Below are positions 3,779-32,273 of a DNA stretch of 33,212 nucleotides, one piece after another (positions within the stretch are counted from its first letter, which is position 1; every line of letters begins with the position of its first letter). A program made the translations under genes and the position numbers. The notes beneath the pieces are model-generated. The model ran no database searches. It was not told the DNA's origin and worked only from the letters and a program-made list of their open reading frames with translations. The DNA is from an uncultured Muribaculaceae bacterium (GTDB lineage: Bacteria > Bacillota_I > Bacilli_A > RF39 > UBA660). Where the stretch lies: assembly GCA_964370105.1 (NCBI GenBank), contig CAYJHB010000001.1:1-33212 (forward strand). The letters run 5' to 3'.

Positions 3779-3787
3779 GGAGAAAAA

Positions 3788-4699: not shown

Positions 4700-6688
<1,989 letters not shown>

Positions 6689-6707
6689 AAGAAAATACCA
6701 ATAAATT

Positions 6708-6729
6708 AATGCCTTTTTGGCATTTTTTT
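6708..6729 (+). terminator. Rho-independent terminator after ligA
   Basis: AATGCC (6708-6713), TTTTT loop, GGCATT (6719-6724), then a T-run to 6729. Confidence 0.75.
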
Positions 6730-6737
6730 GTTATAAT
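6729..6737 (+). promoter_or_regulatory. Extended -10 promoter element for gatCAB
   Basis: TGtTATAAT at 6729-6737, about 25 nt upstream of the gatC start. No convincing -35 is present. Confidence 0.4.
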
Positions 6738-6762
6738 ATATAATATAAAAAGGAGATATTAT

Positions 6763-7059
6763 ATGAATAAAATATTAACTGATAAAGAAGTATTACATAT
6801 TGCTCATCTTGCTAGAATTAAAGTGAGTGAAAGTGATATTGAGAAGTATAAAGTACAATTAGGTGTTTTAATAGAGGAAGTAGATAAAATCAAAGAAGTA
6901 ATAAATAATGATGATGAGATATTAATAAGTCCAGTTAATCATGAAAGTATACTACGTGAAGATAAAGAAAAACCTAGTTTAAGCGAAATGGAAATAATGA
7001 AAAACGTCCCTTCTAAAGAAGGTAATTTTATAAAGGTACCGGTGATGATAAATGAGTAA
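6763..7059 (+). CDS. gatC: Asp/Glu-tRNA(Asn/Gln) amidotransferase subunit C
   Basis: MNKILTDKEVLHIAHLARIKVSESDIEKY is a typical GatC N-terminus. SD AGGAGA lies 7 nt upstream of ATG 6763. The track start at 6709 lies inside the ligA terminator hairpin and is rejected. Confidence 0.9.
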   Translation: MNKILTDKEVLHIAHLARIKVSESDIEKYKVQLGVLIEEVDKIKEVINNDDEILISPVNHESILREDKEKPSLSEMEIMKNVPSKEGNFIKVPVMINE

Positions 7060-10421: not shown

Positions 10422-12461
10422 ATGAAAAAGAAATTATTTATAATTATACCAATATTAATTGCCATAATTGTTTTTTTAGTAGTTTACTCTTACTATAATA
10501 CAAGCGATGCAGAAACATCTCTTTCTATCAGTGACAAACAATGGATTGAAGATAACGCACTAAGTGTAGTGGACTTTGAAGTTGTTAATGATTACCCATT
10601 ATATGGGATGAATGGAACTGGTGTTTTATTTTCTTTTTTATCTGATTTCAGTACAGATACAACAATTGAAATAAATAAGATTCCGTATTTAAAAACAGAA
10701 GAACCAAATTCAAATGCATACAGTTTCCAAGTGTTAAACAGTGATGAAAAGCTAACTGAAAATGACTTACTAATAATTGAAGATAGTTATGTTCTAATTT
10801 CTAAAGAAAATAAAAAAATTAATAATCTAGAAGATGTAATTGATCAAAAAATAGGGGTTATTAGTAGTGAAGTAGCAGAGTTATCTTATTATTTTAAGTC
10901 AACTGAAAATACAACAATTACGGGATATGATACAATTGATGAATTATATGAAGCATTAGATTCAGGAGATGTTACAATGATCTCTATTCCTAATATCATG
11001 CACATGGATAAAACAATTGTAACTGATGATTACCATATTAATTACTATTTAACTGAAATAAGCAAAAAACTAGTGTTAAGATTAAGTGAAAATGATGATA
11101 GATTAAATGAAATAGTAAAGAAATATTTTAATAACTGGATGTTGAATTATTATTCAGAAGAGTACAATAAAACTTATTTTGACTATTATATTGAATCAAA
11201 AGAAATTACTTCGAAAGAAGAAGCAGATTTAATATCTAAAAACTACATCTATGGATATGTAGAGAACTATCCATATGAAATGACAATAGATAATAAAGCA
11301 GAGGGTATTGCAAGTGAATATATTAACCGTTTAGCTAGATTAACAGGTATTGATATAGAATATCAAAAATATTCAACTGTAGAAGATTTACAAGAAGCAA
11401 TTAATAATAATCAAGTAGATATAGCATTTAATAACCAAAACTATAATGCTGATAACTATAATAAAAGTAAGTCACCATTTTATGAGAGCTATGTTATTTT
11501 AGGTAAAACAACTGAAGAATATATTATTAATAGTTTTGAAGCTATCAAAAACGAAGAAGTAGTAATGCTTCAAAAAGATTATTTATATGAATATGTAACT
11601 TTGAATACATCTGTTAATATAACTAATTATAATAATATTAATGAACTAATAGACAATGTGGAGTCAGAGTTAGTTATCATTGATAAAGAAATTTATGAAT
11701 ATTATAAAAATACATTATTTATTGATTATGATTTCTTATATACTGATTATATGACTAATGATTATTCGTTTTTAGTCATTAATACAGATTTAGTCTTCAA
11801 AGATTTATTTGATTATGTTATTATGTCTAACTCATACTATAAATATCGCCAAACAGGATTAAGTAATTTAAGAATGTCATTATTTGAAAGATCTACTTTC
11901 CAAACAGTATATTTTATTGTACTAGGTGCGGTATTAATACCGATTGTTATAGCTATCGTAACTTATTTGATTTTAAAGAAAAGAAAAGTAGTTAAAACAG
12001 TGCGTAAAGATGAAAGACGAAAGTATACTGATTTACTAACATCACTTAAAAATAGAAATTACTTAAATTTGAAAAAAGAAGAGTGGGAAAATAATACTAT
12101 TTATCCACAGTCAGTTGTTGTAATAGATTTAAATAATGTAAAATATGTTAATGATAACTATGGACATGAAGCAGGGGATAATTTAATTGTAAAAGCTGCT
12201 GCTATGTTAGTAAATACACAATTAGAAAATAGCGAAATTATTAGAACTGATGGTAATGAATTTTTAATTTACTTAGTTGGATATAGTGAACAACAAATGT
12301 CTACATATGCAAAAAAATTAACTAAAGAAATGCAAAACCTACCACATGAGTTCGGTGCTGCAATAGGATTCAGTATGATTCTAGATGATATAAAACTAAT
12401 TGATGATGCTATTAATGAAGCAACAATAGCAATGCGAAAAACTAAAGAAATGGATAAGTAA
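10422..12461 (+). CDS. Membrane protein with a large extracytoplasmic (solute-binding-like) region and a C-terminal GGDEF-type domain carrying a degenerate DGNEF motif
   Basis: N-terminal TM, a ~470-aa extracellular part, and a second TM (YFIVLGAVLIPIVIAIVTYLIL). These are followed by VVVIDLNNVKYVNDNYGHEAGDNLI ... RTDGNEFLIYL, which fits the GGDEF-domain pattern D-x-D-x-F-K-x-x-N-D-x-x-G-H-x-x-G-D ... R-x-GGDEF. SD AAGGAG is present. Confidence 0.8.
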   Translation: MKKKLFIIIPILIAIIVFLVVYSYYNTSDAETSLSISDKQWIEDNALSVVDFEVVNDYPLYGMNGTGVLFSFLSDFSTDTTIEINKIPYLKTEEPNSNAYSFQVLNSDEKLTENDLLIIEDSYVLISKENKKINNLEDVIDQKIGVISSEVAELSYYFKSTENTTITGYDTIDELYEALDSGDVTMISIPNIMHMDKTIVTDDYHINYYLTEISKKLVLRLSENDDRLNEIVKKYFNNWMLNYYSEEYNKTYFDYYIESKEITSKEEADLISKNYIYGYVENYPYEMTIDNKAEGIASEYINRLARLTGIDIEYQKYSTVEDLQEAINNNQVDIAFNNQNYNADNYNKSKSPFYESYVILGKTTEEYIINSFEAIKNEEVVMLQKDYLYEYVTLNTSVNITNYNNINELIDNVESELVIIDKEIYEYYKNTLFIDYDFLYTDYMTNDYSFLVINTDLVFKDLFDYVIMSNSYYKYRQTGLSNLRMSLFERSTFQTVYFIVLGAVLIPIVIAIVTYLILKKRKVVKTVRKDERRKYTDLLTSLKNRNYLNLKKEEWENNTIYPQSVVVIDLNNVKYVNDNYGHEAGDNLIVKAAAMLVNTQLENSEIIRTDGNEFLIYLVGYSEQQMSTYAKKLTKEMQNLPHEFGAAIGFSMILDDIKLIDDAINEATIAMRKTKEMDK

Positions 12462-17237: not shown

Positions 17238-20200
17238 ATGACAAAATTAATCAGCAATTATAAAACTAACAAGAAATATCTAGCAAAGTATTACAAAAAA
17301 CTAGTCTCCTTAACAAAGAAAAAAAACTATGTCGGAGCTAACAATGAATGGTTAATTGATAATTATCATGTTCTATTATTAAATGACGCCGAAGTCAAAA
17401 AAACTATAAAAATAAGTGATAATGTTTATCAACTTAATAATTACAATCAAGATTTACTAAAAACAATAGAAGAAGTCTTAGAAGATAGCAATTATAAAGT
17501 AAATATTAATAGCTTCATCAATAAATTGAAAACTAAAGGATATGAGTATACATATAAAGAATTAAATATGTTAACTACTATTATCTTATTTATTCTTGTT
17601 AATAAAGTTAGTGATATCTATCATGAAGAATCATCTAATATTAGTGATTTACTAGAAGCAAAAAAAATAAGAAAAAAACTTTTACAAGAACAATTAAATT
17701 CTTTTAAAAATTACAAAAAGTACACAAGAGGAATTGAAAAAAGACCAGTATTTTTAGAAAATATTGTTTACTTGATTCAAGAGATGGACTCATCATCACA
17801 ACATCTACTAGCAGAGTTAAATGATTACTTAGAAACAAAAGGAACAACTATAAAAGAAATGCTAAATAACATTCATCAACAACAAGCTGATAATAATATA
17901 ATAATTATTAATATATGGACTAGTTTAAATGAATTGTTGAAAGCTCAAATAACAACTGTGTATAATAAACTTAGTAATACAGAACAATTATTAAAACAAG
18001 ATAAAATGTATAAACAAATGGATGATAGATCAAAAGAAATCTATCGTCAAAAAATAATAAAATTAGCTAAAAGACTGAAAATAGAAGAAGAAGAGTTTGT
18101 AGAAAAACTAATAAAAAAATCTAAAGATGATGAAAAACATATTGGATTTTATTTATTTAAAACACCAAATATAAAGTTACGTACAACAACTTATATGGGA
18201 GCTATGTTATCGTTTACTGTTCTATTAACATTAGCACTTACTGTTATTTTTATACCACAAAAGATTTTGGGATTTTTCCTATTATTATTACCCTGTAATG
18301 AATTAGTATTTCAAATATTAAATAATTTTTTACTACGACACAGTAATCCAGATGAAATAGTTAAATTAGATTATGATAAAGGAATACCTAACAGTTCAGC
18401 AGTAATGATTGTAATGCCAACTATTGTTAAAAATAAAGAGAAAGTAATTTCATTATTTAAAACTTTAGAGACATATTACTTATCAAATATTGGTAAAAAC
18501 GTTCATTTTACATTACTTGCTGATGGTAAAGAAAACAAAGAAGAACACTATGAATTTGATGATGAAATTAATCAAGCTGGATTAGATGAGTGTTTAAGAT
18601 TAAATAAAAAATATGGAAGAGATATCTTTTTCTTTATTCATCGTAGAAGATTTTATAATAAAAATGAAGGATCATGGTTAGGAATAGAACGTAAAAGGGG
18701 AGCTCTTAATCATTTCAATTTAACATTGTTAAATAAATTAACAAAGGAAGAAAAGCAAAAATACTTCCAAGTTCAAAATTTAGATACCTTAAAAAGTAAA
18801 ATAAAGTATGTCATAACTTTGGATACCGATACACAATTAGTAGTTAATACAGTATCAAAACTAGTAGGAGCAATGGATCATCCGCTTAATACACCGGTTC
18901 TAAATAAAACTAAAACCAAAGTAGTTAGTGGTTATGGTATTATGCAACCTAAAATTAGTCTAGATATAGAATCAACAAATAGAAGTATTTATTCCCAATT
19001 ATTTGTAGGTATTGGTGGTTTTGATATTTATAACAGAACAACACCTAATCTTTATCAAGATATCTTTAAAGAAGGATCGTTTGTTGGAAAAGGAATTTAT
19101 AATTTAGAAACATATGATCAAGTACTAACTAATGCATTCCCAGATAATTTAATTTTAAGTCATGATTTAGTAGAGGGTAATTATTTAAGATGCGCTTACT
19201 TATCTGACATTGAACTATATGATGATTTTCCATCTAAATATCTAACTGATGCTATGCGTAAACATCGTTGGGCAAGAGGAGATACACAAATAAGTGGATG
19301 GATGTTCAAAAAAGTAAGAAACGCTAGAAATAGAAAAGTAAATAATCCATTTAACTTTATAGAAAAGTGGAAAATCTTTGATAACTTACGTCGTAGTTTC
19401 TTAGATTTTAGTTACTTATTAATTATAATAGCAGCATGTTTCTTAAATGCTAAAACTCCAGTTATCTTTCCTATTTTAGTTTTAATCATTATCTTACTAC
19501 CAATTCTTTATTATTTTTTAACAAAAATAAATTATAGAGCTTTTTTTGGTATCAAAAGAAAGAGATACCGTCGTTATTTTTATGGTAGTATCGCAGTCTT
19601 TTTAAGATGTTTAACAACGTTCGCTCTAATTCCATATAATGCTTTCTTATATTTAGATGCTACTATTAGATCTTTATATAGAATGCTAATTAGTAAGAAA
19701 AAACTACTTAATTGGATTACTGCAGAAGAAGCAGAAAAAATGGTTAAAAATAACCTTTCTGCATACTTTAAAAGATTCTTAATCAATTATATAGTCGGAA
19801 TTATCTTTATTGTTCTTGGCTTAGTAGATGATAGTTATACTATTATTATCTTTGGATTATTATTTATGGGAGCTCCATTACTACTATATTGGATTAGTAA
19901 AGAGTTCAATGAAAATAAAAATATTGAAAAGAAAAAGGAAGAAGTATTAACAAAACTAGCTTATGATACATGGAAATATTTTGATGATTTATTAACTGAT
20001 GAAAATAATTACTTAATACCAGATAATTATCAATTAAATAGAGAAGAAAAAGTAGGTGTACAAACATCGCCTACTAACATAGGAATGTCTATTTTAAGTA
20101 TCATATCAGCTTATGAGTTCAAATTTATTACATTAGAAAAAGCTTTATCATTACTAAATAGTATTATTAGTACTGTCGAAGAGCTAGATAAATGGAATGG

Positions 20201-23200
20201 ACATTTATATAATTGGTACTTAGTAGACACAAAAGAAAAACTATATCCATTTTATATTTCATCAGTAGATAGTGCTAACTTTGTAGCATCACTATACACT
20301 CTAAAATCTTTTGCAGAACAACATCAAGATAAAAGACTAAGAGATGTAACACATGAGTTGATTAAAAATACGAACTTCAGTTTATTATATACAGAAGAAG
20401 ATGTTTTTAGTATAGGATATAATACATTAGAAGAAAAATTATCACCATTCAATTATAATAAATTTGCAAGTGAAAGTAGAATTTTAAGCTATATTGGTAT
20501 TGCATCTTTAGAAGCGCCAGTTAAGCATTGGTTCTGTCTAGATAAAACGATAACTAGTTATAAAAGAGAAAAAGGTTTAACATCATGGGCTGGAACATCA
20601 TTTGAATATTTTATGCCTCTTATTTTCATGCGTAACTATAAAAATACTTTATTAGATGAAAGCTATAACTTTGCCGTTAAATGTCAAAAAGATTATATCA
20701 ATAGCATCAACACTGATCTACCTTGGGGAATATCAGAGTCAGCTTATGCTGAATATGAAGATAATTCAAACTACAAATACAAGACTTTTGGAACTCCTCA
20801 TTTAAAGTTACAGAACAAGGATCCAGAAAGAATTGTAATTTCTCCTTATGCATCATTAATAGCTGTTGATTATGCTAAAGACATAGTTGAAAATATTGAA
20901 AAATATCAAAAAATTGATATGTATAACCAATATGGATTATTAGAAGCATATGATTATACAAAAAAAACACCAGTAAAAGCTTATTTTGCACATCATCAAG
21001 GAATGATTTTAGCAAGTTTAGCTAATCACTTAAAAAATGATGCAATTCAAAACTATTTCCATGAAAATGTTGAAATAAATACTTTTGAAATATTATTAAA
21101 GGAAAAAGCACAAATTAAGTGCCATATTGATAAAAAGATTAATAAATACAAAAGTTATGATTATGAAAAAGAAGATATCCAAAACGATATCAGACAAATT
21201 AAATCATTATCAGCAAGACCAGAAATATCAGTTATTTCTAATGGAAAATATGCCTTATTAATAAACGAAAGAGGTAATGGTTTCTCAAGGTATCGTACAA
21301 CACAATTAAATCGTTATCGTAAAATAACAGAACAAGCCTATGGAATGTTGTTATATTTTAAAGATTTAAACAATAACAAAGTGTGGTCTAATACATATGC
21401 ACCTATGAATGTAAAACCAGATGATTATGAAGCTATCTTTGCTACTGATAAAATCAAATTTATAAATAAGACAAATGAAATAACAACAACAACAGAAATT
21501 GTCGTGGGAACAAAACATAATTCTGAAATACGTAAATATACATTTTATAATAATTCAGATGAAATTAAAAAATTACAATTAACAACTTACAATGAACCTA
21601 CGATTGGACCAAATAGCGATGACATTGCTCATCGTACATACCAAAACTTATTTGTGAAAACAGAATATAATGACCAAGAAAAATTCTTAGTATCATCAAG
21701 AGAAAAAGAAAATAAGATAAAATATGTTGTTAATAAGTTATATAGTAAAAAACAAGATTTAGTTATTGAATATGAAACAACAAGAGAAAAATTTATCGGT
21801 AGAAATAGAAATACAGATAATCCAGTGGCATTAGAAAACGATAATTTAACTAATACTTACGGTGACGGAATTGATCCAGTCATGAGTTTGAGAACAACAA
21901 TTGAACTTAAACCACAAGAAAAACAAGTAATTTATTTTGTGAATGGGTACTCAAGAAGTATGGACCAAGTAAAAGATTTAGTTCGCTATTATAACAAAGG
22001 AACAAATCTTGAAAAAGCATTTGAACTGGCTAACATCAAAAATAATATGAATACTAAGCTACTAAATTTACATGGTGCAGAAATGAGACTATATAACATT
22101 ATGCTTAATTATTTATACCAAACAAGTAGATTGAATGTACCAAAAGCAAGAACAGACATCATGAAAAACAATACACTATCACAAGAATCATTGTGGAAGT
22201 TTGGTATTAGTGGAGATAGACCTTTAATTTTAGTGAATGTTAATGAAATAAAAGATATTGGTTTAATCAAAGAATTATTAAAAGCTTATGAGTATTTTAA
22301 ATCAAGATCACTATTTATTGATTTAGTAATAGTTAATAACAATATATTAGAATGTAGTCATATTTTAGAAGTGATTACTAATGAAACAAAGTATAAAATA
22401 GAAAATATTTATAATATTGATAATAATTTAGGTAACATTAATATCATTGAAAAAGACCAATTAACTGAAGAAGAAGTAATTCTCTTACAAGAAGTAGCAA
22501 GACTAAATATCAATAGTGAAGAATATCTATCTCTGTATGAATACATTGCAAATCTACAAGGTATGAATGTTTTAATTCCATATAGAAGACATAATCACGA
22601 AAAAACTATTAAGTATGAAGTTGATAATTTAGAATATTACAATGGCTATGGTGGTTTTGCTAATGAAGGTAAAGAGTATATTATTAATAATCCAAATACC
22701 CCAACACCATGGAGTAATGTCCTAGCTAATAAAACATTTGGTAGTATTGTTACTAATAATGCAAATGGATATACTTACTATGGAAATTCAAGAGAGTTTA
22801 AAATATCATCATGGACTAACGATATTGTAGTGGATGATAAAAGTGAAGGGATTAAAGTTAATGGAAAACACTTTAACCCATCTCTGACAACACATGGTTT
22901 TGGATATTCAACATTTACAAGTCAAGGAAATGATTACGAAGGTAATTTAACTGAATTTGTACATTATGTAGATAATATAAAATATTACTTATTCAAATTA
23001 AAAAATATAAGTAAAGAAACTAAGAAATATACACTTAACTTTTGGATGAATCCAGTACTAGGTGTAACAGAAGAAAAAACAGCTAGACATATATATTCTG
23101 AAATGCTTGAAAATGAGAACGCTTTATTACTGAGAAATGTATATAATAAGATTTTTGGAAATGTTAATATCTTAATGACATCAAGCGAAAAAATTACTGA

Positions 23201-24890
23201 TTATTCTTATAGTAAAGTACTGATTAGAAGTATTAATATTGAAGTAGAACTAGAACCAGGAAAAGAAAAAGAAATTTCTTTCATGATTAAAGCTACAACA
23301 GATAATATAACTTTTGATAAGAGTATAAAAGCTGTTAAGAAAGAATTACTTAATACTAAGAAATATTGGCATGATACATTATCTACTATTCAAGTTAAAA
23401 CACCAGATTCTAGCCTTGACTATATGCTTAATGGATGGTACTTATATCAAGCACTAGCGTGTAGAATATATGCTAAATCAGGATTTTATCAAGTAGGTGG
23501 AGCATATGGATATCGTGATCAATTACAAGATGCATCAAATCTTACTAATATAAATCCCGAAACATCAAAAAAACAAATTTTAAATAATGCTACTCATCAG
23601 TTTAAAGAAGGAGATGTTCTTCACTGGTGGCATAAAGAATTAAGTTTTGGGTTACGTTCAAGATATAAAGATGATTACTTATGGTTAGTATATGCAACAC
23701 TTTCATATATTGAAAAAACAGAAGATTTATCTATTTTAGATGAGCAAGTACCATTTGTAGAAGGTGAAGAATTACAAGAATTCGAATCAGAAAAAGGTAT
23801 GCCATTTACTTATTCAAATTACCAAGAAAGCTTGAAATATCATATGTTCTTAGCACTGGAAAAGTCTATGAATTCATTAGGAAAGCATGGAATACCACTT
23901 ATGGGTGGAGGAGACTGGAACGATGGTATGAATAAAGTTGGTATAGAAGGTAAAGGAGAAAGTGTTTGGTTAGGTTTCTTCCTACACTTAATTATTGATA
24001 AATTAGTTAATGTTTTTGATAAATTTGAAATAGAATATGACAAAAACAAGTATGTTGATTTTAATTTTGAACTAAAAAAAGATATATTGAATAATTGCTA
24101 TGATAAAGAGTATTATCTAAGAGCATTCTTTGATAATGGTGATAAGTTAGGATCAATAGAAAATGATGAATGTAAAATAGACTTATTATCACAAAGTTTT
24201 GCTATTTTATCAGAAGTAGCAACTAAAGAACAAGTTAAATCAATCTTAAAAAATACTGAAAGTACATTAGTCGATAAAGAGACAAAAATAATCAAACTAT
24301 TAACACCAGCATTTAAAAATTCAAAAAACAATCCTGGATATATTAAACACTACCCAGTAGGAATCAGAGAAAATGGTGGGCAATATACTCACTCAGTAGC
24401 TTGGTATATCATGGCTCTATGTCAAGCAAAAGAACATGACAAAGCCTATGAATATTATCAAATGATTAATCCAGTTAATAGAACTACTAATCAACAAGAT
24501 ACTGATACTTATGCCTTAGAACCATATGTTATCGCAGCAGATATTTATACTAATGAAAGATATAAAGGCCGTGGTGGATGGAACTGGTATACAGGAAGTG
24601 CAGCTTGGTTTTACAGAGTAGGTATTGAAATAATATTAGGATTTAATAAAAAAGGTAATAAATTAACAATTACACCACATATTCCTAAACATTTTAATCA
24701 ATATGAAATAACTTATAAATATCAAGATACAACATATCATATTACTGTTAATAATAAGAAAGAGACATCTACTGAATACATTGTAGATGGTAAAAAAACA
24801 GATTTTATAGCATTAATAAATGATAAAAAACAACACGAAGTAGTTGTTAATTTAGCAAAGGAGATTAACTATGATCAAATTGGATTTTAA
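17238..24890 (+). CDS. Cyclic beta-1,2-glucan synthase-like multidomain protein (Cgs/ChvB/NdvB family: N-terminal region, GT84-type glycosyltransferase, 6 TM segments, central glucan-binding/cyclisation region, C-terminal GH94 phosphorylase domain)
   Basis: 2550-aa uninterrupted ORF. It has NEWLIDNYHVL near the N-terminus, glycosyltransferase motifs ITLDTDTQL (DxD at 18822-18830) and HRWARGD (19264-19281), and paired hydrophobic segments flanking the GT region. The C-terminal part carries GH94 hallmarks: YRDQLQD, GGGDWNDGMN (23910-23924) and ENGGQYTH. Confidence 0.88.
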   Translation: MTKLISNYKTNKKYLAKYYKKLVSLTKKKNYVGANNEWLIDNYHVLLLNDAEVKKTIKISDNVYQLNNYNQDLLKTIEEVLEDSNYKVNINSFINKLKTKGYEYTYKELNMLTTIILFILVNKVSDIYHEESSNISDLLEAKKIRKKLLQEQLNSFKNYKKYTRGIEKRPVFLENIVYLIQEMDSSSQHLLAELNDYLETKGTTIKEMLNNIHQQQADNNIIIINIWTSLNELLKAQITTVYNKLSNTEQLLKQDKMYKQMDDRSKEIYRQKIIKLAKRLKIEEEEFVEKLIKKSKDDEKHIGFYLFKTPNIKLRTTTYMGAMLSFTVLLTLALTVIFIPQKILGFFLLLLPCNELVFQILNNFLLRHSNPDEIVKLDYDKGIPNSSAVMIVMPTIVKNKEKVISLFKTLETYYLSNIGKNVHFTLLADGKENKEEHYEFDDEINQAGLDECLRLNKKYGRDIFFFIHRRRFYNKNEGSWLGIERKRGALNHFNLTLLNKLTKEEKQKYFQVQNLDTLKSKIKYVITLDTDTQLVVNTVSKLVGAMDHPLNTPVLNKTKTKVVSGYGIMQPKISLDIESTNRSIYSQLFVGIGGFDIYNRTTPNLYQDIFKEGSFVGKGIYNLETYDQVLTNAFPDNLILSHDLVEGNYLRCAYLSDIELYDDFPSKYLTDAMRKHRWARGDTQISGWMFKKVRNARNRKVNNPFNFIEKWKIFDNLRRSFLDFSYLLIIIAACFLNAKTPVIFPILVLIIILLPILYYFLTKINYRAFFGIKRKRYRRYFYGSIAVFLRCLTTFALIPYNAFLYLDATIRSLYRMLISKKKLLNWITAEEAEKMVKNNLSAYFKRFLINYIVGIIFIVLGLVDDSYTIIIFGLLFMGAPLLLYWISKEFNENKNIEKKKEEVLTKLAYDTWKYFDDLLTDENNYLIPDNYQLNREEKVGVQTSPTNIGMSILSIISAYEFKFITLEKALSLLNSIISTVEELDKWNGHLYNWYLVDTKEKLYPFYISSVDSANFVASLYTLKSFAEQHQDKRLRDVTHELIKNTNFSLLYTEEDVFSIGYNTLEEKLSPFNYNKFASESRILSYIGIASLEAPVKHWFCLDKTITSYKREKGLTSWAGTSFEYFMPLIFMRNYKNTLLDESYNFAVKCQKDYINSINTDLPWGISESAYAEYEDNSNYKYKTFGTPHLKLQNKDPERIVISPYASLIAVDYAKDIVENIEKYQKIDMYNQYGLLEAYDYTKKTPVKAYFAHHQGMILASLANHLKNDAIQNYFHENVEINTFEILLKEKAQIKCHIDKKINKYKSYDYEKEDIQNDIRQIKSLSARPEISVISNGKYALLINERGNGFSRYRTTQLNRYRKITEQAYGMLLYFKDLNNNKVWSNTYAPMNVKPDDYEAIFATDKIKFINKTNEITTTTEIVVGTKHNSEIRKYTFYNNSDEIKKLQLTTYNEPTIGPNSDDIAHRTYQNLFVKTEYNDQEKFLVSSREKENKIKYVVNKLYSKKQDLVIEYETTREKFIGRNRNTDNPVALENDNLTNTYGDGIDPVMSLRTTIELKPQEKQVIYFVNGYSRSMDQVKDLVRYYNKGTNLEKAFELANIKNNMNTKLLNLHGAEMRLYNIMLNYLYQTSRLNVPKARTDIMKNNTLSQESLWKFGISGDRPLILVNVNEIKDIGLIKELLKAYEYFKSRSLFIDLVIVNNNILECSHILEVITNETKYKIENIYNIDNNLGNINIIEKDQLTEEEVILLQEVARLNINSEEYLSLYEYIANLQGMNVLIPYRRHNHEKTIKYEVDNLEYYNGYGGFANEGKEYIINNPNTPTPWSNVLANKTFGSIVTNNANGYTYYGNSREFKISSWTNDIVVDDKSEGIKVNGKHFNPSLTTHGFGYSTFTSQGNDYEGNLTEFVHYVDNIKYYLFKLKNISKETKKYTLNFWMNPVLGVTEEKTARHIYSEMLENENALLLRNVYNKIFGNVNILMTSSEKITDYSYSKVLIRSINIEVELEPGKEKEISFMIKATTDNITFDKSIKAVKKELLNTKKYWHDTLSTIQVKTPDSSLDYMLNGWYLYQALACRIYAKSGFYQVGGAYGYRDQLQDASNLTNINPETSKKQILNNATHQFKEGDVLHWWHKELSFGLRSRYKDDYLWLVYATLSYIEKTEDLSILDEQVPFVEGEELQEFESEKGMPFTYSNYQESLKYHMFLALEKSMNSLGKHGIPLMGGGDWNDGMNKVGIEGKGESVWLGFFLHLIIDKLVNVFDKFEIEYDKNKYVDFNFELKKDILNNCYDKEYYLRAFFDNGDKLGSIENDECKIDLLSQSFAILSEVATKEQVKSILKNTESTLVDKETKIIKLLTPAFKNSKNNPGYIKHYPVGIRENGGQYTHSVAWYIMALCQAKEHDKAYEYYQMINPVNRTTNQQDTDTYALEPYVIAADIYTNERYKGRGGWNWYTGSAAWFYRVGIEIILGFNKKGNKLTITPHIPKHFNQYEITYKYQDTTYHITVNNKKETSTEYIVDGKKTDFIALINDKKQHEVVVNLAKEINYDQIGF

Positions 24891-26031
24891 GTATGTAAAA
24901 ACACCAAGAGAAAACAATTTTTCAATAGATATAATTAAAGAAAAATTATTTTCTTCACCTATGACTGGTTGGTTAGATTATAAATTAGATACAACTAAAG
25001 TAAAAGAAATAGCTAATCGAGTAAAAGAAAAAGCAGAAGTATTTATTGTTATTGGAATAGGTGGATCATATCTAGGTAGTAAGGCTATTATCGATAGTCT
25101 TACACCATACTTTAAAAAGAGTAAAACAGAAGTAATATATGCTGGCACGAATTTATCTAGTGAGTATATGAATGATTTACTAACCTTTATTTCTTCTAAG
25201 GAAGTTATGATTAATCTAATATCAAAATCAGGTTCAACACTAGAGCCTAATATTGCTTTTGATTTAATCAAAAAAGAACTAGAAAAAAAATACTCTAAAG
25301 AAGAATTAGCTAGTAGAATTATTATTACTACTGAAACGGATAATAATTTAGATAAAAAAGCCAATGACTTAGGTTATCAAACATTAGAAATACCAAAAGA
25401 TATAGGTGGAAGATTTTCTTGCTTAACACCAGTTGGATTACTTCCGATTGCAGTCGCAGGGTATGATATTGATGAATTACTAAGAGGGAGTGAAGCCGGT
25501 AAAAACTACTATAAAGAAGCTTATGATTATGCTCTGCTTAGACATGCAAACTATCAAAATAATAAATATATAGAAGCATTCACTATCTATGAAGAAAAAT
25601 TATATATGTTCACAGAGTGGTTTAAACAATTATTCGCAGAGTCACAAGGAAAAGATTATAAAGGTATATTACCAATTTCTGTAGTTAATACAAGAGATTT
25701 ACATTCCTTAGGACAATTCATCCAAGAAGGTAACAAAGTACTATTTGAAACCGTTTTAAAAGTTAATGAATCAAAAGACATAGAATTATCGGCTATGAGT
25801 TTAAATACACTAAACCATATAGCATTAGATAAAGTATGCGAAGCTCACTTACAAGACAATTCAGAAAGCTTAATTATTGAAATAGATAAAATAGACGAGT
25901 ATCATCTAGGACAGTTAATCTATTTCTTTTACCTAAGTGTATCAATAGGTGGACTTATGTTAGAAGTAAATCCATTTGATCAACCCGGTGTAAGTAAATA
26001 TAAAAAACTATTAGAAGAAGCTATTAATTAG
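24871..26031 (+). CDS. pgi: Glucose-6-phosphate isomerase (compact Firmicutes type)
   Basis: VIGIGGSYLGSKA, ISKSGSTLEPN, DIGGRFS, AESQGKD, DLHSLGQFIQEG and NPFDQPGV motifs. SD AAGGAG lies inside the end of the upstream gene, and the two genes overlap by 20 nt. Confidence 0.93.
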   Translation: MIKLDFKYVKTPRENNFSIDIIKEKLFSSPMTGWLDYKLDTTKVKEIANRVKEKAEVFIVIGIGGSYLGSKAIIDSLTPYFKKSKTEVIYAGTNLSSEYMNDLLTFISSKEVMINLISKSGSTLEPNIAFDLIKKELEKKYSKEELASRIIITTETDNNLDKKANDLGYQTLEIPKDIGGRFSCLTPVGLLPIAVAGYDIDELLRGSEAGKNYYKEAYDYALLRHANYQNNKYIEAFTIYEEKLYMFTEWFKQLFAESQGKDYKGILPISVVNTRDLHSLGQFIQEGNKVLFETVLKVNESKDIELSAMSLNTLNHIALDKVCEAHLQDNSESLIIEIDKIDEYHLGQLIYFFYLSVSIGGLMLEVNPFDQPGVSKYKKLLEEAIN

Positions 26032-26194: not shown

Positions 26195-28039
26195 GTGAAA
26201 AACATGCAAGATAAATACTCAAGTAAACAAACGCATAGAAACTATTATCCAGAAGGAAGCGTTGAAGAAATAATTAATAATTCAAAGATGAAAGCATATG
26301 ACTATATGCAAGAAAAAAACAAAAATAATTTAGATTTAATAGCAACTCGTTATTATGGTGATAAAAAAGATTATAACCATTTATTACAAAAGATCGAAGA
26401 TTATGCTAAAACATTTAAAAGTTATGGTATAGGTAAAGGTGATGTTGTAAGTATAGCTTTGCCAACAATGCCAGAAATGATGTATGCAAAATACGCTTTA
26501 AATAGAATAGGAGCAGCATCATATTTGATAGATCCTAGATCTAATCCTGATAAGATATTAGAATATTTTAATAAATCAAATTCAGTGTCAATAATAGCAG
26601 CACAAGAAGTAGTGCCGACTAAAATTATGCCTATTGCTGATAAACTTAGATGTGATAATATAATAACAACATCAGCATCTGACTCTATGAATTTTTGGAA
26701 ACTAGAACCAAGAGTACAAATGTTATATGCAATGATGATTGCTAATAATAATTTCAGTAAAATAAAAAGCAAAATCAAAGGTGATAAATTCATCACTATC
26801 CAAGACTTAGAAAATAAATATAAAAATAAATTTAGTGGTATTCTAGATACACCGTATGAAGAAAACGAACCATTTGCAATCTATAACACAAGTGGTACTA
26901 TTGATCCTACAGGAACTTTAAAAGGATGTATTGCATCTAACGAAGCTTATAATGCAACAGTAGAGCAAATGAGAATAGCAGGAAAAGACTTTAAAAAAGG
27001 AGAAACATCACTATCTATTATTCCGATGTTCTCATCATTTGGATCACTGGTAAATATGCATAATTCATTATCAAACTCTTGGGAATTAATACTAATGCCA
27101 AAATTTGATCCGCTAAAATTTGATTTATACTTAAAAGAACACAAGCCTAATAGTGTAATTGCGGTACCTAGTATGTGGGAAACACTGATTAAATATGATA
27201 GAGTAAATGATGTTGACTTTTCTTTTTTAACTAGACCAGTTACTGGTTCTGCTAAAATGAATATTACTAAGATAGATGAAGTGAATAAGTTTTTTAAAGA
27301 GCATAATGCTCCAGATACAGTATTAAAAGTAGCTTATGGGGCTAGTGAGTTTGGAGGATGTATTTCTGCAACCTTAGAAGATCATGGGTTCTATAGACCA
27401 GAAACAGAAGGAATTTTATTAATGGGATGTAGTGCAATGGTAATAGACCCTGATACAAAAGAAGAATTAGATATTGGAGTAGCTGGAGAACTATGCGTTA
27501 ATACACCAACAATGATGAACGAATATATTGATAATGATGAAGCTACTGAAGATATTACTATTTATAAAGACGGTATGAAGTATTATAGAACAGGGGATAA
27601 GGTGTACTTGGATGAAACAGGACATGTGCATATAATTGACCGCTATAAAACATTTATCAAAAAACCAGATGGACACAGTATTCCAGCACAACCGATAGAA
27701 AACGCAGTACTACTACATCCGTCAATTAGTAATTGTGTGGCTGTAGGACTTGCTTATGACGAGTTATCAGGAACAATACCAACAGTTTTTGTTGAAAGAA
27801 ATGATAAGTCTAAATCTTTTGACGAAATAGTTAGTATATTAGATGATTTATGTAAAGTGAATTTACCATCACCTGATTTACCAATGGCATTTGTAGAAGT
27901 AGAAGAGTTAGCACTTACTCCTATGTTAAAACCAAATCGCAAACACTATGAAGGATTTAAGTTTGAAGATATTAATCCAGTGGTAGTTGACGATCATTTC
28001 TTAGATAATAAAAAACACCAATTTAAAAAGAATAAATAA
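26195..28039 (+). CDS. Adenylate-forming (AMP-binding, acyl-CoA synthetase-like) enzyme; substrate unknown
   Basis: YNTSGTIDPTGTLKGC (variant of the T-S-G-T-T-G-x-P-K-G motif), a YGASEFGG-type motif, YRTGDKVYLDETGHVHIIDRYK, and the C-terminal TPMLKPNRK. The start is GTG 26195 (SD GGGGAAG) or ATG 26204. Confidence 0.85.
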   Translation: MKNMQDKYSSKQTHRNYYPEGSVEEIINNSKMKAYDYMQEKNKNNLDLIATRYYGDKKDYNHLLQKIEDYAKTFKSYGIGKGDVVSIALPTMPEMMYAKYALNRIGAASYLIDPRSNPDKILEYFNKSNSVSIIAAQEVVPTKIMPIADKLRCDNIITTSASDSMNFWKLEPRVQMLYAMMIANNNFSKIKSKIKGDKFITIQDLENKYKNKFSGILDTPYEENEPFAIYNTSGTIDPTGTLKGCIASNEAYNATVEQMRIAGKDFKKGETSLSIIPMFSSFGSLVNMHNSLSNSWELILMPKFDPLKFDLYLKEHKPNSVIAVPSMWETLIKYDRVNDVDFSFLTRPVTGSAKMNITKIDEVNKFFKEHNAPDTVLKVAYGASEFGGCISATLEDHGFYRPETEGILLMGCSAMVIDPDTKEELDIGVAGELCVNTPTMMNEYIDNDEATEDITIYKDGMKYYRTGDKVYLDETGHVHIIDRYKTFIKKPDGHSIPAQPIENAVLLHPSISNCVAVGLAYDELSGTIPTVFVERNDKSKSFDEIVSILDDLCKVNLPSPDLPMAFVEVEELALTPMLKPNRKHYEGFKFEDINPVVVDDHFLDNKKHQFKKNK

Positions 28040-28065: not shown

Positions 28066-29880
28066 ATGAATAGTTCAAATATAGGAGCTATATATGCATT
28101 CCTATTTAATTTAATTGTACTAATCGCATACTTTTCTAAAAAAAGAGTTAACACAAAAGAGACAACACTTTATAAGTGGCTTTTGATTACTTCATTATCT
28201 GGAACTATTTTAAGCATAAGTTCATATTATGTTCTAACATCAGTGACAACTATAACTGATATAGTAACACTTGCGCCAAAAATATATTTATTTAATTTGT
28301 TAATATGGGGAACCTTATTTACAATGTATATGACAAGTGTAGCTATTCCAAATAATAAACAAACATCTTTAAAATTATATAATACTTTTTTTGTGATAAT
28401 AGGAGCAGTAGCAGCAGTGTTATTATTTGTTTTGCCGCTTGACATTGTCAGCAATGGTAGTAGAGTATACACAACAGGATGGAGTCAAAATGTATTATAT
28501 GTACTAGTTATTATTAATGCCATAATTGTGTTGATATTGATAGTGATTAATTTCAAAAAAATACCATTAAAAAAAATATTGCCAATTTTAACTTTTGTTG
28601 TAATAAGTTTGCTAGTATTCTTTGTTCAATATCAAAATCCAAGTTTGTTTTTAATAACTATTAGTATTACATTAAATACAACATTAATGTATCACACCAT
28701 TGAAAACCCTGATGTCAAAATGATTAATAAATTAGAAGTTGCTAAAGCACAAGCAGAAAAAGCTAATAATGCTAAAAGTGATTTCTTATCGAGTATGTCA
28801 CATGAGATAAGAACTCCTCTAAATGCAATTGTAGGGTTAAGTGAATATGTAAATAGTAAAGAGACTGTGCCAGAAGAAATAAAAGGTGATTTACAAGACA
28901 TTGTTAATGCATCTAGTACACTACTAGAAATAGTAGGTAATATCTTAGATATTAATAAAATTGAAAGTGAAAAAATGGAAATCACTAATGTTACTTATAA
29001 CTTTAAAGAAGAACTAAGAAAAATTGCTAAGATGAATAAAACAAGAGTTTCTGATAAAGGCTTGGTATTAAATATCACAATAGCAAAAGATATTCCGTAT
29101 GAGTTAATAGGTGATAAAGTTCATGTTAAGTCTATTATTAACAACTTATTATCTAATGCTATTAAATATACTGAAAAAGGTGAAATAACGATTAATGTTA
29201 ACTGTATTAATCAAAATAACATATGTACTCTAATAATATCAGTAAGAGATACAGGGCGTGGTATAAAAGCAGATTCTATTAATAAGCTATTCGAAAAATT
29301 TGAACGACTAGACATAGAAAAAAACAGTACTACAGAAGGAACAGGATTAGGCCTAGCAATAACTAAAAAAATAGTGGAATTAATGGGTGGTAAGATAAAT
29401 GCCCAAAGCCAATATGGACAAGGAAGTATATTTGTGGTTCATTTGCCACAAACAATTTCCAAATTAGAAAGTGATAATATTGAGGAAATATCAAATGAAA
29501 CACCAATTCTAAATAACCAAGGAAAGAAAATCTTAATAGTAGATGATAATAATTTAAATATTAAAGTTGCTAAAAAACTATTGGAAGGGACTAACTGTAT
29601 AATAGAAGAGTGCACAACTGGAGAAGAATGTTTAACAAAAACAAAAGACAATAGTTATGATCTGATTCTTCTAGATATAATGATGCCTAAGATGAGTGGA
29701 GAAGAAGTATTAAAAAAATTAAAAGAAAATAATGATTTTAATACACCAGTAGTAGCATTAACCGCCGATGCTGTCTTAGGAGCTAAAAACAAATATATAG
29801 AAGAAGGATTTACTAACTATTTAGCAAAACCATTCAATAAAGAACAAATTACCAATCTTGTTAATACTATTTTAAAATAG
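28066..29880 (+). CDS. Hybrid sensor histidine kinase: polytopic membrane sensor, HisKA, HATPase_c and a C-terminal receiver domain
   Basis: About 6-7 TM segments in the first 210 aa. H-box SHEIRTPLNAI (His codon 28801-28803), N-box NLLSNAIKYT, G1 DTGRGI, G2 GTGLGLAI. The receiver has ILIVDDN, LILLDIMMP (Asp codon 29674-29676), ALTADA and AKP. Confidence 0.92.
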   Translation: MNSSNIGAIYAFLFNLIVLIAYFSKKRVNTKETTLYKWLLITSLSGTILSISSYYVLTSVTTITDIVTLAPKIYLFNLLIWGTLFTMYMTSVAIPNNKQTSLKLYNTFFVIIGAVAAVLLFVLPLDIVSNGSRVYTTGWSQNVLYVLVIINAIIVLILIVINFKKIPLKKILPILTFVVISLLVFFVQYQNPSLFLITISITLNTTLMYHTIENPDVKMINKLEVAKAQAEKANNAKSDFLSSMSHEIRTPLNAIVGLSEYVNSKETVPEEIKGDLQDIVNASSTLLEIVGNILDINKIESEKMEITNVTYNFKEELRKIAKMNKTRVSDKGLVLNITIAKDIPYELIGDKVHVKSIINNLLSNAIKYTEKGEITINVNCINQNNICTLIISVRDTGRGIKADSINKLFEKFERLDIEKNSTTEGTGLGLAITKKIVELMGGKINAQSQYGQGSIFVVHLPQTISKLESDNIEEISNETPILNNQGKKILIVDDNNLNIKVAKKLLEGTNCIIEECTTGEECLTKTKDNSYDLILLDIMMPKMSGEEVLKKLKENNDFNTPVVALTADAVLGAKNKYIEEGFTNYLAKPFNKEQITNLVNTILK

Positions 29881-29898: not shown

Positions 29899-29948
29899 AT
29901 TTGTATAAAATAAACTCTTATTACATATTTTTTTATAGGAGTGATTAA

Positions 29949-31106
29949 ATGAAATATTTAAAGCTATTACTAATAGGATTGCTATTACCAATTAATATTA
30001 ATGCTGAGGAAGTAGAGACACCCACTGATTACTTAGAAAATGCTAATACAGGTGTTTTGATAGAAGCAACTACAAAAGAAGTATTATTTGATAAAAATAT
30101 GCATGAACAAGTATCAGTAGCATCCCTAACTAAAATGGTTGGATTGATAATTATTATGGAACAACTAGAAGAAGGTAAAATAAGTCTTACAGATGAAGTG
30201 ACAATTAGTAGTAATGCATCAGGTATGGGCGGAACACAAATATTCTTATCAACCGGTGAAATAATGAGTTTAGAAGATTTAATTAAAGGAATTGTTATGG
30301 CTAGTGCAAATGACGCTATTGTCGCAGCTGGAGAATATATCGCAGGTACTGAAGAAGAATTTGTTAAGTTAATGAATGAAAAAGTAAACGAACTAGGATT
30401 AGAAAATACTAATTTTAAAAATAGCACAGGATTTGATGAAGAAGGACATTACTCAAGCGCATATGATATGGCAATTATTGCTAGTGAATTAGTAAAACAT
30501 GAAGATATACTCAAATATTCATCTATATATGAAGATTATTTAAGAGAAGATACTGAAAATAAATTTTGGCTTGTAAACACCAATAAACTAGTAAGATTTT
30601 ATGATGGTGCAGACGGACTAAAAACAGGGTATACAGATGATGCCTTATCTACTATGGCAGCAACTGCTAAAAAAGATGATATGAGGCTAATAGCTATTAC
30701 ATTAGGATATGAAAACTCAACAACTAGAAATGAAGAAACAATAGATCTTTTAGATTATGGTTTTAATAATTATAAAGTAACAACTATAAAAAAACAAACA
30801 GATATTGTAGATAAAGTTAATCTAACTAAAAGTAATCAATTAATTGAAGTTGTTCCTATCTATGATGTACAAGTTTTAACTAAAAAAAATGAAACTGAGA
30901 AAAACTATGAAACAAAAGTTAAAATATATGAGTTACAACTTCCCATAAAACCAAATGATATCATTGGTAAAATGACTATTTATGATGAAGGAAATATCGT
31001 CAATGAAGTCGATTTAACAGTAACTAAAGAAATAAAAAAAGTAGGTTACTTTGAACTGTTATTTAATACCATCAAAGATATAATAAGTGGAACTATTAAA
31101 TTATAG
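29949..31106 (+). CDS. dacF: D-alanyl-D-alanine carboxypeptidase (S11, PBP5 type), at the dacF position upstream of spoIIAA
   Basis: Signal peptide, then SVASLTKM (SxxK), ASAND (SxN) and KTGYT (KTG), plus a C-terminal beta-sandwich domain. SD AGGAG is present. The symbol rests on synteny with B. subtilis dacF-spoIIA, so dacA/dacB-type paralogy cannot be excluded. Confidence 0.85.
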   Translation: MKYLKLLLIGLLLPININAEEVETPTDYLENANTGVLIEATTKEVLFDKNMHEQVSVASLTKMVGLIIIMEQLEEGKISLTDEVTISSNASGMGGTQIFLSTGEIMSLEDLIKGIVMASANDAIVAAGEYIAGTEEEFVKLMNEKVNELGLENTNFKNSTGFDEEGHYSSAYDMAIIASELVKHEDILKYSSIYEDYLREDTENKFWLVNTNKLVRFYDGADGLKTGYTDDALSTMAATAKKDDMRLIAITLGYENSTTRNEETIDLLDYGFNNYKVTTIKKQTDIVDKVNLTKSNQLIEVVPIYDVQVLTKKNETEKNYETKVKIYELQLPIKPNDIIGKMTIYDEGNIVNEVDLTVTKEIKKVGYFELLFNTIKDIISGTIKL

Positions 31107-31114
31107 TTCCTTTT
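31089..31114 (+). terminator. Rho-independent terminator after dacF
   Basis: GGAACTAT (31089-31096), 6-nt loop, ATAGTTCC (31103-31110), then TTTT. It includes the TAG stop. Confidence 0.75.
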
Positions 31115-31115
31115 A

Positions 31116-31134
31116 TTCGACATACTTCGACATA
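31116..31134 (-). promoter_or_regulatory. Two tandem Spo0A boxes (TGTCGAA read on the - strand), 10-bp phased
   Basis: TTCGACAta-c-TTCGACAta: TTCGACA at 31116-31122 and 31126-31132, which is the reverse complement of the 0A-box consensus TGNCGAA. The boxes are separated by a 3-bp spacer. Confidence 0.6.
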
Positions 31135-31192: not shown

Positions 31193-31199
31193 TGTCGAA
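31193..31199 (+). promoter_or_regulatory. Third Spo0A box (TGTCGAA, + orientation) upstream of spoIIAA
   Basis: Perfect TGTCGAA at 31193-31199, 53 nt upstream of the spoIIAA ATG. Confidence 0.55.
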
Positions 31200-31251: not shown

Positions 31252-31596
31252 ATGTTAACAATTAATATGGAATTTAGAAAAGGAATTTTATTTCTTCGTT
31301 TAAATGGAAGTTTAAACAAAAAGAATGCTAAGTCCTTAAAAAACAAAGTTGATGAATTAGTCAAAGAGAAAGGAGTTAAATTTTTTGTTTATAATCTGTC
31401 TCATTTAGAAGAAATAGATGATTTAGGTATTAATACAATCAAAGATAATTATCAACAAATAAGTTGTGCTAAAGGAGAAATGGTCTTATGCGATATAAGT
31501 TCTTCTATTAAATTATGTATTAATGGAGACCATGTTTTAAAACATACAAACCAAATAGACGATGAGTTATCAGCTTTTCACAAAATAAAAATATAA
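31252..31596 (+). CDS. spoIIAA: STAS-domain anti-anti-sigma factor, SpoIIAA-like
   Basis: Aligns without gaps by eye to B. subtilis SpoIIAA: (V)xNLxxLxxxDxxGxxxI ... GEMVLCDIS versus IVLNLEDLSFMDSSGLGVIL ... GEMVVCAIS. SD GAGGTG lies 6 nt before ATG 31252, so the track start GTG 31243 is rejected. It lies directly upstream of a SigF-like gene. Confidence 0.85.
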   Translation: MLTINMEFRKGILFLRLNGSLNKKNAKSLKNKVDELVKEKGVKFFVYNLSHLEEIDDLGINTIKDNYQQISCAKGEMVLCDISSSIKLCINGDHVLKHTNQIDDELSAFHKIKI

Positions 31597-31607
31597 GGAA
31601 TGATAAA

Positions 31608-32273
31608 TTGACAAATGAACAAGTAGATTTAATAGTAGAACATGAAAAACTAATATATTCCATTATTTCAAAGTATAAAGGTTATTTTGATAAAGATGAT
31701 TTATATCAAGTAGGAGTAATAGGACTGTTAAATGCTAAAGAAAATTACAATAGTGGGTATAACACTAAATTCTCCACTTATGCCTATACTTATATCTTAG
31801 GAGAAATATCTAAGTATGTAAGAGAAGATAGAAGTATTAAAGTAAGCAAAGATATTCTAAAAAGAAGCAAATTAGTAGAAAGAACTAAAGAATTAATGAC
31901 ACAAAAGTTGATGAGAGAACCAACTATTTTAGAATTATCATTATATTTAGATTTAGATGAAATTAAAATAGAGGAGGCTATAAGTGCTAAAGAATATATT
32001 AAAAGCCTAGATAAAGAGACTAACGAAGAAGGTAAAGGAGTTAATTTATATGATTATGTCCAAGATAAGGAACAAGCATACAAACCAGAAGTAATGGACT
32101 TAAATACTATATTAAGTAGTTTAACTGAAGAAGAAAAAAACTTAATTAATATGCGCTACTATCAAGGATATACTCAACAAGAAACATCGCAAGAACTAGG
32201 AACATCACAAGTACAAATATCACGTAAAGAAAGTAAAATACTAAATAAAATAAAAGATAAAATGATTGCTTAA
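31608..32273 (+). CDS. sigF: Sporulation-type group-3 sigma-70 factor, SigF-like
   Basis: DLYQVGVIGLL (region 2), FSTYAYTYILGEISKYVREDRSIKVS (compare FSTYAVPMIIGEIQRFIRDDGTVKVS in B. subtilis SigF), and region 4 LGTSQVQISRKESKILNKIK (compare LGISQVQVSRLEKKILKQIK). The start is TTG with AAGGA upstream. In-frame ATG alternatives are absent. Confidence 0.85.
   Translation: MTNEQVDLIVEHEKLIYSIISKYKGYFDKDDLYQVGVIGLLNAKENYNSGYNTKFSTYAYTYILGEISKYVREDRSIKVSKDILKRSKLVERTKELMTQKLMREPTILELSLYLDLDEIKIEEAISAKEYIKSLDKETNEEGKGVNLYDYVQDKEQAYKPEVMDLNTILSSLTEEEKNLINMRYYQGYTQQETSQELGTSQVQISRKESKILNKIKDKMIA

Follow-up and report, generated by a model that had tools for sequence, protein, structure and literature searches.

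Near the end of a 33,212-nucleotide stretch of AT-rich DNA (contig CAYJHB010000001.1 of assembly GCA_964370105.1, forward strand; G+C content about 27%; referred to here as the window), a gene for a SpoIIAA-like STAS protein is followed directly by a gene for a sigma factor resembling sigma-F (Table 1). The SpoIIAA-SpoIIAB-SpoIIE switch is the textbook cell-fate mechanism at the onset of endospore formation. A preliminary description of this DNA had pointed out that the STAS and sigma genes lie 11 nt apart with no gene for the anti-sigma kinase SpoIIAB between them, and the coordinates obtained here agree with this. Its view that the rest of the locus looks canonical was borne out in part. It holds for the upstream dacF gene, identified by Pfam as encoding a DacF-like S11 carboxypeptidase, for the Spo0A-binding (0A) boxes, three of which are perfect in the 145-nt leader, and for the sigma gene, which is intact and encodes sigma-70 regions 2, 3, and 4. 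It does not hold for the STAS protein, which carries an Asp at the phosphorylation site and scores far below the SpoIIAA threshold, nor for the sigma factor, which is divergent and about 30 residues short.

SpoIIAB in the window and in related loci

With B. subtilis SpoIIAB as the query, phmmer returned no match among all six-frame open reading frames (ORFs) of the window. An unfiltered search with a profile of 49 canonical SpoIIAB sequences matched only the HATPase domain of the histidine kinase encoded upstream of the dacF-like gene, with 16 bits. The earlier statement that no ORF for a HATPase anti-sigma factor lies between 29.9 kb and the end of the window is thus confirmed for all six frames of the whole window. 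Neither an ORF of at least 20 aa nor an Rfam RNA family was found in or beside the spacer between the two genes. The B. subtilis SpoIIAA, SpoIIAB, and SigF query sequences gave matches of 170 to 248 bits to Bacillus-like loci, and that of SpoIIAA is consistent with the alignment to 1AUZ. As the SigF query lacks one residue compared to a length of 255 aa, the sigma-F numbering given below may be off by one.

Table 1. Features of the STAS-sigma locus and its immediate surroundings in the window
Feature	Position	Strand	Remarks
Hybrid histidine kinase gene	28066-29880	+	Directly 5' of the dacF-like gene; with HATPase domain
Forespore-type (sigma-F/G-like) promoter candidate, GTATA-N16-CATATT	29903-29929	+	20 nt 5' of the dacF-like start; consensus match
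Gene for DacF-like D-alanyl-D-alanine carboxypeptidase (Peptidase_S11 + PBP5_C)	29949-31106	+	Pfam PF00768, 227 bits
Terminator-like hairpin, 8-bp stem, then T-run	31089-31110	+	3' of the dacF-like gene
Leader of the STAS-sigma operon, 145 nt	between dacF-like gene and ATG 31252	+	Contains three 0A boxes
Two perfect Spo0A boxes (TGTCGAA)	31116-31122 and 31126-31132	-	Sequence match; both also in the closest relative, L006
Perfect 0A box within the conserved motif TTTGTCGAAT	31193-31199	+	59 nt 5' of the STAS start codon
Putatively SpoIIAA-derived STAS gene, 114 aa	31252-31596	+	ATG start, GAGGTG before start, TAA 31594-31596
STAS-sigma spacer, 11 nt	31597-31607	+	Too short for any gene
Ribosome-binding site AAGGA	31595-31599	+	8 nt 5' of the sigma TTG; shares bases with the stop codon of the STAS gene
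Gene for divergent, putative sigma-F orthologue, 221 aa, N-terminally short	31608-32273	+	TTG start
Pyruvate formate-lyase gene	from 32484	+	3' of the sigma gene

In addition to the three neighborhoods described below, a metagenome scan yielded 80 loci, each comprising about 10 kb around a relative, and all loci were queried with B. subtilis SpoIIAB and SpoIIAA. SpoIIAB is missing within about 5 kb in all 26 loci of what we refer to as the clade, whose sigma factors score at least 143 bits against that of the window; a single further locus above 143 bits, L025 (145 bits), is the exception and is canonical. About 50 lower-scoring loci, with sigma factors of 236 to 257 aa, have the order STAS-SpoIIAB-sigma wherever the upstream sequence suffices. 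One locus (L052) has neither STAS nor SpoIIAB upstream and is possibly a SigG locus. The two-gene layout of another relative, P0012, was present in 10 independent assemblies, including L088. Six-frame scanning of about 294 kb of clade DNA (the 26 loci and the 10 P0012 assemblies) with the unfiltered SpoIIAB profile retrieved ordinary histidine-kinase domains only. The absence noted in the preliminary description for one locus is thus a recurrent feature of its relatives. Among these, the STAS and sigma genes overlap by as much as 4 nt or are separated by up to 11 nt. The neighborhoods of three relatives show an ORF of 100 to 110 aa, the sigma gene 7 to 10 nt downstream, and then spoVAC-spoVAD-spoVAE, with no kinase gene. 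No conserved neighbor of unknown function able to replace SpoIIAB was detected in the compared clade loci. In a canonical locus from the human gut (L033, 1868-2345), SpoIIAB is split across two overlapping frames scoring 29 and 26 bits. The contig has 2.3x coverage, and a frameshift error is a more probable cause than gene decay.

Three clade loci (L014, 4431-5615; L015, 3-1162; L026, 2937-4139) carry a short sigma-F gene and spoVAC-D-E without a STAS gene. The gene upstream of sigma codes for a dUTPase in L014 and L015, and L026 has an ORF of unknown function (158 aa) at this place. These loci suggest reduction in steps, from three genes to two and then to one.

The sigma factor of the window has more than 1,500 relatives, and the best 120 clusters are all 211 to 222 aa long and originate from metagenome-assembled genomes labeled "Bacilli bacterium." In a neighbor-joining comparison with canonical sigma factors drawn from diverse metagenomes, the short sigmas (203 to 222 aa) were monophyletic in 40 of 40 bootstraps, and their mean Kimura distance was 0.93, compared to 0.75 among the canonical sigmas. 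Because the short sigmas are monophyletic and very diverse, a single old loss of SpoIIAB would account for their distribution. The closest relative of the window, L006, has a sigma factor of 91% identity, the same 0A boxes, and the same STAS-sigma junction. This locus (contig CAYJBD010000022.1) was deposited as "uncultured Muribaculaceae bacterium." Since such a Bacteroidota label is incompatible with a sporulation operon, it probably reflects a binning or labeling error.

The STAS protein and its former phosphorylation site

The STAS protein of the window matches the Pfam STAS family with 54.7 bits and reaches 53.6 bits on the SpoIIAA equivalog model TIGR02886 (cut-off 114.75). Its best solved relatives in a PDB search are SpoIIAA structures (E = 1e-12). 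The alignment to these is ungapped and pairs Asp57 (window numbering) with Ser58 of B. subtilis SpoIIAA, in the motif E-I-D-D-L-G-I-N as opposed to the canonical F-M-D-S-S-G-[LI]-G. The top Foldseek match of an AlphaFold2 model (pLDDT 89.8) is SpoIIAA as well (1THN_B; TM 0.91, 1.7 Å), and in this model the substituted residue lies at the N-terminus of helix 2.

For a broader view, 48 canonical SpoIIAA proteins, 20 clade STAS proteins, and the 145 nearest representatives at 50% identity were compared. A word-indexed homologue search with the STAS protein had returned 3 proteins, and the sample was built instead from the harvested loci and an exhaustive search of representatives. Ser58, invariant in the canonical proteins (48/48), is retained in a single clade protein (1/20) and in 17 of the 145 representatives. 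The preceding D57 persists (48/48 canonical, 18/20 clade, 134/145 representatives), and so to a degree does G60 (47/48, 13/20, and 133/145), whereas G62 drops from 43/48 to 1/20 and 3/145. Residue 58 is hypervariable among the representatives, with E, I, S, L, N, K, D, and others occupying the position. A site that is always acidic, and thus phosphomimetic, had been suggested by D or E in the first five sequences and was rejected on the basis of the hypervariability in the larger samples. Further residues that are at least 90% conserved in canonical SpoIIAA are retained in 0 to 10% of the clade proteins, namely, E21, D23, H24, H25, F55, M56, S59, G66, R67, and G95. For E21 the clade value is 10% and for D23, H24, and H25 it is 0%, compared to 90 to 96% in the canonical sample. 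The clade in turn has conserved residues of its own (G12, F15, R17, G20, L22, N49, C81, and E106).

Asp23 and Ser56 of RsbV, a SpoIIAA homologue, touch the kinase RsbW, and Glu21 of SpoIIAA is the residue that clashes with Asp148 of sigma-F and thereby expels it (PMC7340262). At the sigma-F acidic pair corresponding to the Glu21 clash, at least 90% of canonical sigmas have acidic residues, which the clade has not kept, with the reservation on numbering made above. The SpoIIAA loop G-E-L-D-H-H, with a net charge of -2.2 in the canonical proteins, has become G-x-L-N-K-x-T in the clade, with +0.2 to +0.6, and Lys24 is found in 78 of the 145 representatives. The patch of sigma-F that faces this loop remains acidic in the clade.

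Judging by these alignments, the clade STAS protein is not phosphorylatable at the former Ser58 site, and the canonical SpoIIAB-contact surface appears to be lost. Since both the serine and the contact signature are gone, a kinase encoded elsewhere in the genome would find neither a substrate nor a docking surface. This renders unlikely the relocation of SpoIIAB that the preliminary description had considered. Replacement by something unknown, another possibility that it named, is conceivable. Its third suggestion, a decaying regulatory core, is contradicted by the maintenance of the two-gene layout across a deep and diverse clade and by substitution patterns: dN/dS is about 0.07 to 0.18 for the STAS gene (0.066 in comparison to L006) and 0.035 to 0.14 for the sigma gene. 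These ratios indicate that the STAS gene is under purifying selection and presumably functional rather than decaying.

Two observations on STAS sequences are added here. In the nearly identical loci L004 and L005, the sigma genes are the same and synonymous differences are absent, and their STAS genes (5658-5990 in each) differ at three adjacent residues right at the former phosphorylation-site loop (T-D-E-N-I-F versus T-D-D-T-T-F). This difference could reflect local diversification or micro-recombination at a hypervariable position. Two large proteins, P0312 (1442 aa) and P0332 (2748 aa), align with the middle of the window STAS protein at 6 and 10 separate places, respectively; they may contain repeated STAS domains, or the matches may be an artefact of composition.

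The sigma factor and its sporulation context

The best NCBIfam match of the window sigma is the SigB/F/G subfamily model (169.9 bits; cut-off 234.35), the core model being covered end to end by the clade sigmas. Among the models for single sigma factors, SigF (166 bits; cut-off 321) ranks above SigG (130 bits) and SigB (109 bits; cut-off 315), a ranking that is consistent across six clade sigmas. Likewise, the PDB match is to sigma-F (1L0O, 121 bits), and the next group-3 sigma is chain H of 8X6G, probably sigma-B, with 91 bits. Against the SigF model the clade proteins attain 120 to 170 of the required 321 bits, compared to 296 bits for the nearest canonical sigma (L025). The clade sigmas lack the N-terminal "LI..A..GD..AR" segment of canonical sigma-F, and that of the window is shorter by about 30 residues at this end. 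Four positions are conserved within both groups and differ between them (W45Y, F62Y, V89Y, and D102E in B. subtilis numbering), three of them changing to Tyr. The R-D-D-G motif that follows region 2.4 of canonical sigma-F is also lost.

Perfect TGTCGAA boxes occur five times in the window, compared to 1.1 expected, and an 84-nt portion of the leader holds three of them. Of 18 clade loci, 14 have a TGNCGAA box 52 to 63 nt before the STAS start, 13 of them at 57 to 63 nt, and in many clade loci no more than one further box accompanies the one near -59, that of the TTTGTCGAAT motif. A sigma-H-type promoter around this motif was rejected for unfit -35/-10 spacing, and no sigma-A-type promoter stands out. 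The forespore-type motif GTATAN{16,18}CAYAWT has a single match in the window, the promoter candidate of the dacF-like gene. In 4 of 13 relatives, spoVAC is also preceded by this motif, with no other plus-strand match in the locus. Terminator-like matches in the scanned region number two, the second being the same hairpin on the minus strand, versus 0.4 expected in shuffles.

In B. subtilis, dacF lies upstream of spoIIA in a dacF-spoIIA-spoVA region. The conserved gene order of the clade resembles this arrangement, running from the dacF-like gene through STAS, sigma, spoVAC, spoVAD, and spoVAE to (RNHCP), scpA, and scpB. Homologues of the dacF-like gene precede the STAS-sigma pair in six clade loci. 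In L027, a sigK gene with a pro-sequence (3864-4559; 304 bits on PRK05803, cut-off 252) is found about 70 nt upstream of the pair, so that, unusually, the genes for the earliest and the latest sporulation sigma factors lie side by side. By this one comparison, sigma-F seems to have diverged at a higher rate than sigK. Taken as sequence evidence, the dacF-like gene, the 0A boxes, spoVAC-D-E, the sigK gene of L027, and the promoter motifs support a role of the locus in sporulation.

Apart from the locus itself, the window encodes a giant protein of 2550 aa (17238-24890) with glucoamylase-like, GH94 supersandwich, and GH94 catalytic domains, resembling cyclic beta-1,2-glucan synthase or phosphorylase. 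Its gene runs 20 nt into a short phosphoglucose-isomerase-like ORF (24871-26031), and the two are likewise paired 5' of the STAS-sigma operon in L088. An AMP-binding enzyme (26195-28039) precedes the membrane-bound hybrid histidine kinase with a receiver domain that adjoins the dacF-like gene, an arrangement shared with L001 (1-3121). This kinase could be an orphan kinase feeding Spo0A. More distant are a pcrA-(nucleotidyltransferase)-ligA-gatC-gatA-gatB block typical of Firmicutes (1691-9908) and, following it, a gene for a 679-aa GGDEF protein (10422-12461), which suggests cyclic-di-GMP signaling in a reduced genome.

Explanations for the two-gene operon

We consider it likely that the locus is the spoIIA-operon orthologue in a deep clade of uncultured AT-rich Bacilli, that SpoIIAB was lost once in the ancestor of this clade, and that, the phosphorylation switch being inoperable, the STAS protein was kept as a phosphorylation-independent partner. 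The operon would be reduced to STAS and sigma-F behind a leader with conserved Spo0A boxes. With no kinase gene nearby, and because the phosphorylatable serine and the SpoIIAB-contact surface are lost, partner switching by kinase and phosphatase would not operate, and the need for the SpoIIE phosphatase would probably have disappeared along with it. Upon activation of Spo0A, sigma-F and STAS would be made in roughly equal amounts, and STAS could serve as a binding partner independently of phosphorylation. How it would do so may be envisaged in three ways. Our tentative preference is for direct binding of STAS to sigma-F, as a holding factor or a new anti-sigma factor, because the two genes stay adjacent over great divergence and the loop that repels sigma-F in the canonical system is altered. 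The shift in loop charge is a lead toward such binding and not evidence for it. Only slightly less probable is that sigma-F is under transcriptional control alone, with STAS as an accessory, an idea supported by L014, L015, and L026, in which sigma-F occurs without STAS. That STAS antagonizes an unlinked anti-sigma factor unlike SpoIIAB appears unlikely.

Several points weigh against our interpretation. We know of no precedent for direct binding between a STAS protein and a sigma factor. STAS is dispensable in some clade members, since L014, L015, and L026 possess sigma-F without it, which weakens the idea of an obligatory anti-sigma factor. A very divergent or non-HATPase anti-sigma factor may be encoded elsewhere in the genome, the scans having covered the loci only. 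In the window itself, the sigma gene is followed by a pyruvate formate-lyase gene and not by spoVA, and no spores are known for these organisms. The machine-learning study SpoMAG assigns a sporulation probability of 0% to RF39 and related orders (PMC12536801), and the link of our clade to RF39 is one that we infer.

Some of these points would suit a relic of lost sporulation, in which a non-sporulating lineage carries a STAS-sigma pair that is decaying or reused for another regulon. Genomes are small in the orders concerned, with a reduced complement of sporulation genes, and besides the SpoMAG prediction and the pyruvate formate-lyase neighbor, the loss of STAS as well in some members fits such an erosion. 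Even so, we regard this as improbable, given the purifying selection on both genes, the order with spoVAC-D-E kept across a very deep clade, the conserved 0A boxes, the forespore-type promoter motifs 5' of the dacF-like gene and spoVAC, and the intact sigK gene that adjoins the pair in L027. Simple relocation, with a normal spoIIAB elsewhere in the genome and partner switching as usual, is conceivable insofar as gene order can change and the search covered 33 kb of the window genome and about 10 kb per relative. It is nevertheless very unlikely: the kinase would lack a substrate, Ser58 being replaced in 19 of 20 clade STAS proteins and 128 of 145 representatives, the contact residues E21, D23, H24, H25, G62, G66, and R67 are gone, and SpoIIAB was not found in the 294 kb of clade DNA. 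In addition, spoIIAB and spoIIE are largely absent from RF39 in gene-count surveys, which bears on the matter if the clade includes RF39.

An RsbV/sigma-B-like or sigma-G-like module unrelated to spoIIA might explain why both proteins fall far under their NCBIfam equivalog cut-offs. We hold this to be highly improbable, as SigF ranks above SigG and SigB for six clade sigmas and sigma-F also leads in the PDB, the STAS protein is closest to SpoIIAA and not RsbV by sequence and fold, and the dacF-like gene, the spoVA order, and the 0A boxes match spoIIA. That a deletion or chimera at 31597-31607 removed spoIIAB might be suspected in a contig of a metagenome-assembled genome with a related contig under the implausible Muribaculaceae label. 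The preliminary description had named a misassembly at this place as well. The possibility is refuted for practical purposes, because the arrangement recurs in many independent assemblies: the junction is the same in L006, and more than 25 loci, which come from different studies and were put together by different assemblers (ENA, NCBI, JGI, and Logan), have spacers between -4 and +11 nt.

Compared to spoIIA of Bacillus and Clostridia, the operon shares the dacF-like gene upstream, the leader with Spo0A boxes, spoVA downstream in relatives, the SpoIIAA fold of its STAS protein, and a sigma factor closest to SigF. It differs in lacking a SpoIIAB gene, Ser58, and the contact signature, and in its N-terminally short sigma far under the SigF equivalog score. 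With no kinase, no serine, and no contact loop, the kinase/phosphatase logic of spoIIA would be inapplicable. In the rsbV-rsbW-sigB module, too, a group-3 sigma gene of the SigB/F/G family is preceded by the gene for a STAS antagonist; the present operon, in contrast, has no RsbW nearby, no equivalent of Ser56, a lower score for SigB than for SigF, and a sporulation rather than a stress gene context. The RsfA/RsfB-UsfX-SigF system of M. tuberculosis provides a precedent: Beaucher et al. (2002) reportedly described RsfA as a STAS antagonist acting without phosphorylation and UsfX as an anti-sigma factor without kinase activity. The clade STAS protein, too, lacks a phosphorylation site, and the UsfX-RsfB structure 8IH8 is among its fold matches. 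In M. tuberculosis, however, an anti-sigma factor of the SpoIIAB/RsbW fold adjoins the sigma gene, and none is found near the operon described here.

In comparative surveys, spoIIAB has been regarded as present in all spore formers (Galperin et al. 2022). It is among the nine genes common to all 63 predicted spore formers in SpoMAG 2025 (PMC12536801), and Turicibacter has the canonical spoIIAA-spoIIAB-sigF trio. In the order RF39, spoIIAB and spoIIE were reported to be reduced or absent, and sporulation with "markedly different regulation" was predicted (Field, Bowerman and Hugenholtz 2024; PMC10868615). This report, at the level of KEGG presence or absence in uncultured reduced-genome Bacilli, probably concerns the same phenomenon, whereas the two-gene operon, the loss of the phospho-serine and contact surface, and the selection on STAS are not described there. 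The accessible part of its supplement does not mention spoIIAB or its KEGG number. A literature search retrieved no paper on a two-gene operon or on loss of the phosphorylation site, and no statement on the absence of spoIIAB other than that of Field et al. 2024. The two-gene STAS-sigF operon and the phosphorylation-site loss are thus new here, anticipated only by that gene-count remark on RF39.

Because the SpoIIAB gene and its target serine are lost, the first forespore sigma factor must be controlled otherwise in these bacteria. It is tempting, if quite tentative, to speculate that a presumptive endospore-forming lineage activates this sigma factor without the anti-sigma kinase/phosphatase switch. 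Either STAS would have become a direct, phosphorylation-independent regulator of sigma-F, or sigma-F would work without a protein antagonist, with forespore specificity arising by a mechanism not described so far. A large, ancient, gut-associated clade keeps sigF, spoVA, sigK, and a spoIIAA-derived gene, with the kinase and the phosphorylation site gone, and predictors of sporulation that rely on gene content will misjudge such organisms. The clade would thus represent a natural experiment on the confinement of sigma-F to the forespore without partner switching and on a STAS domain changing partners after the loss of its kinase.

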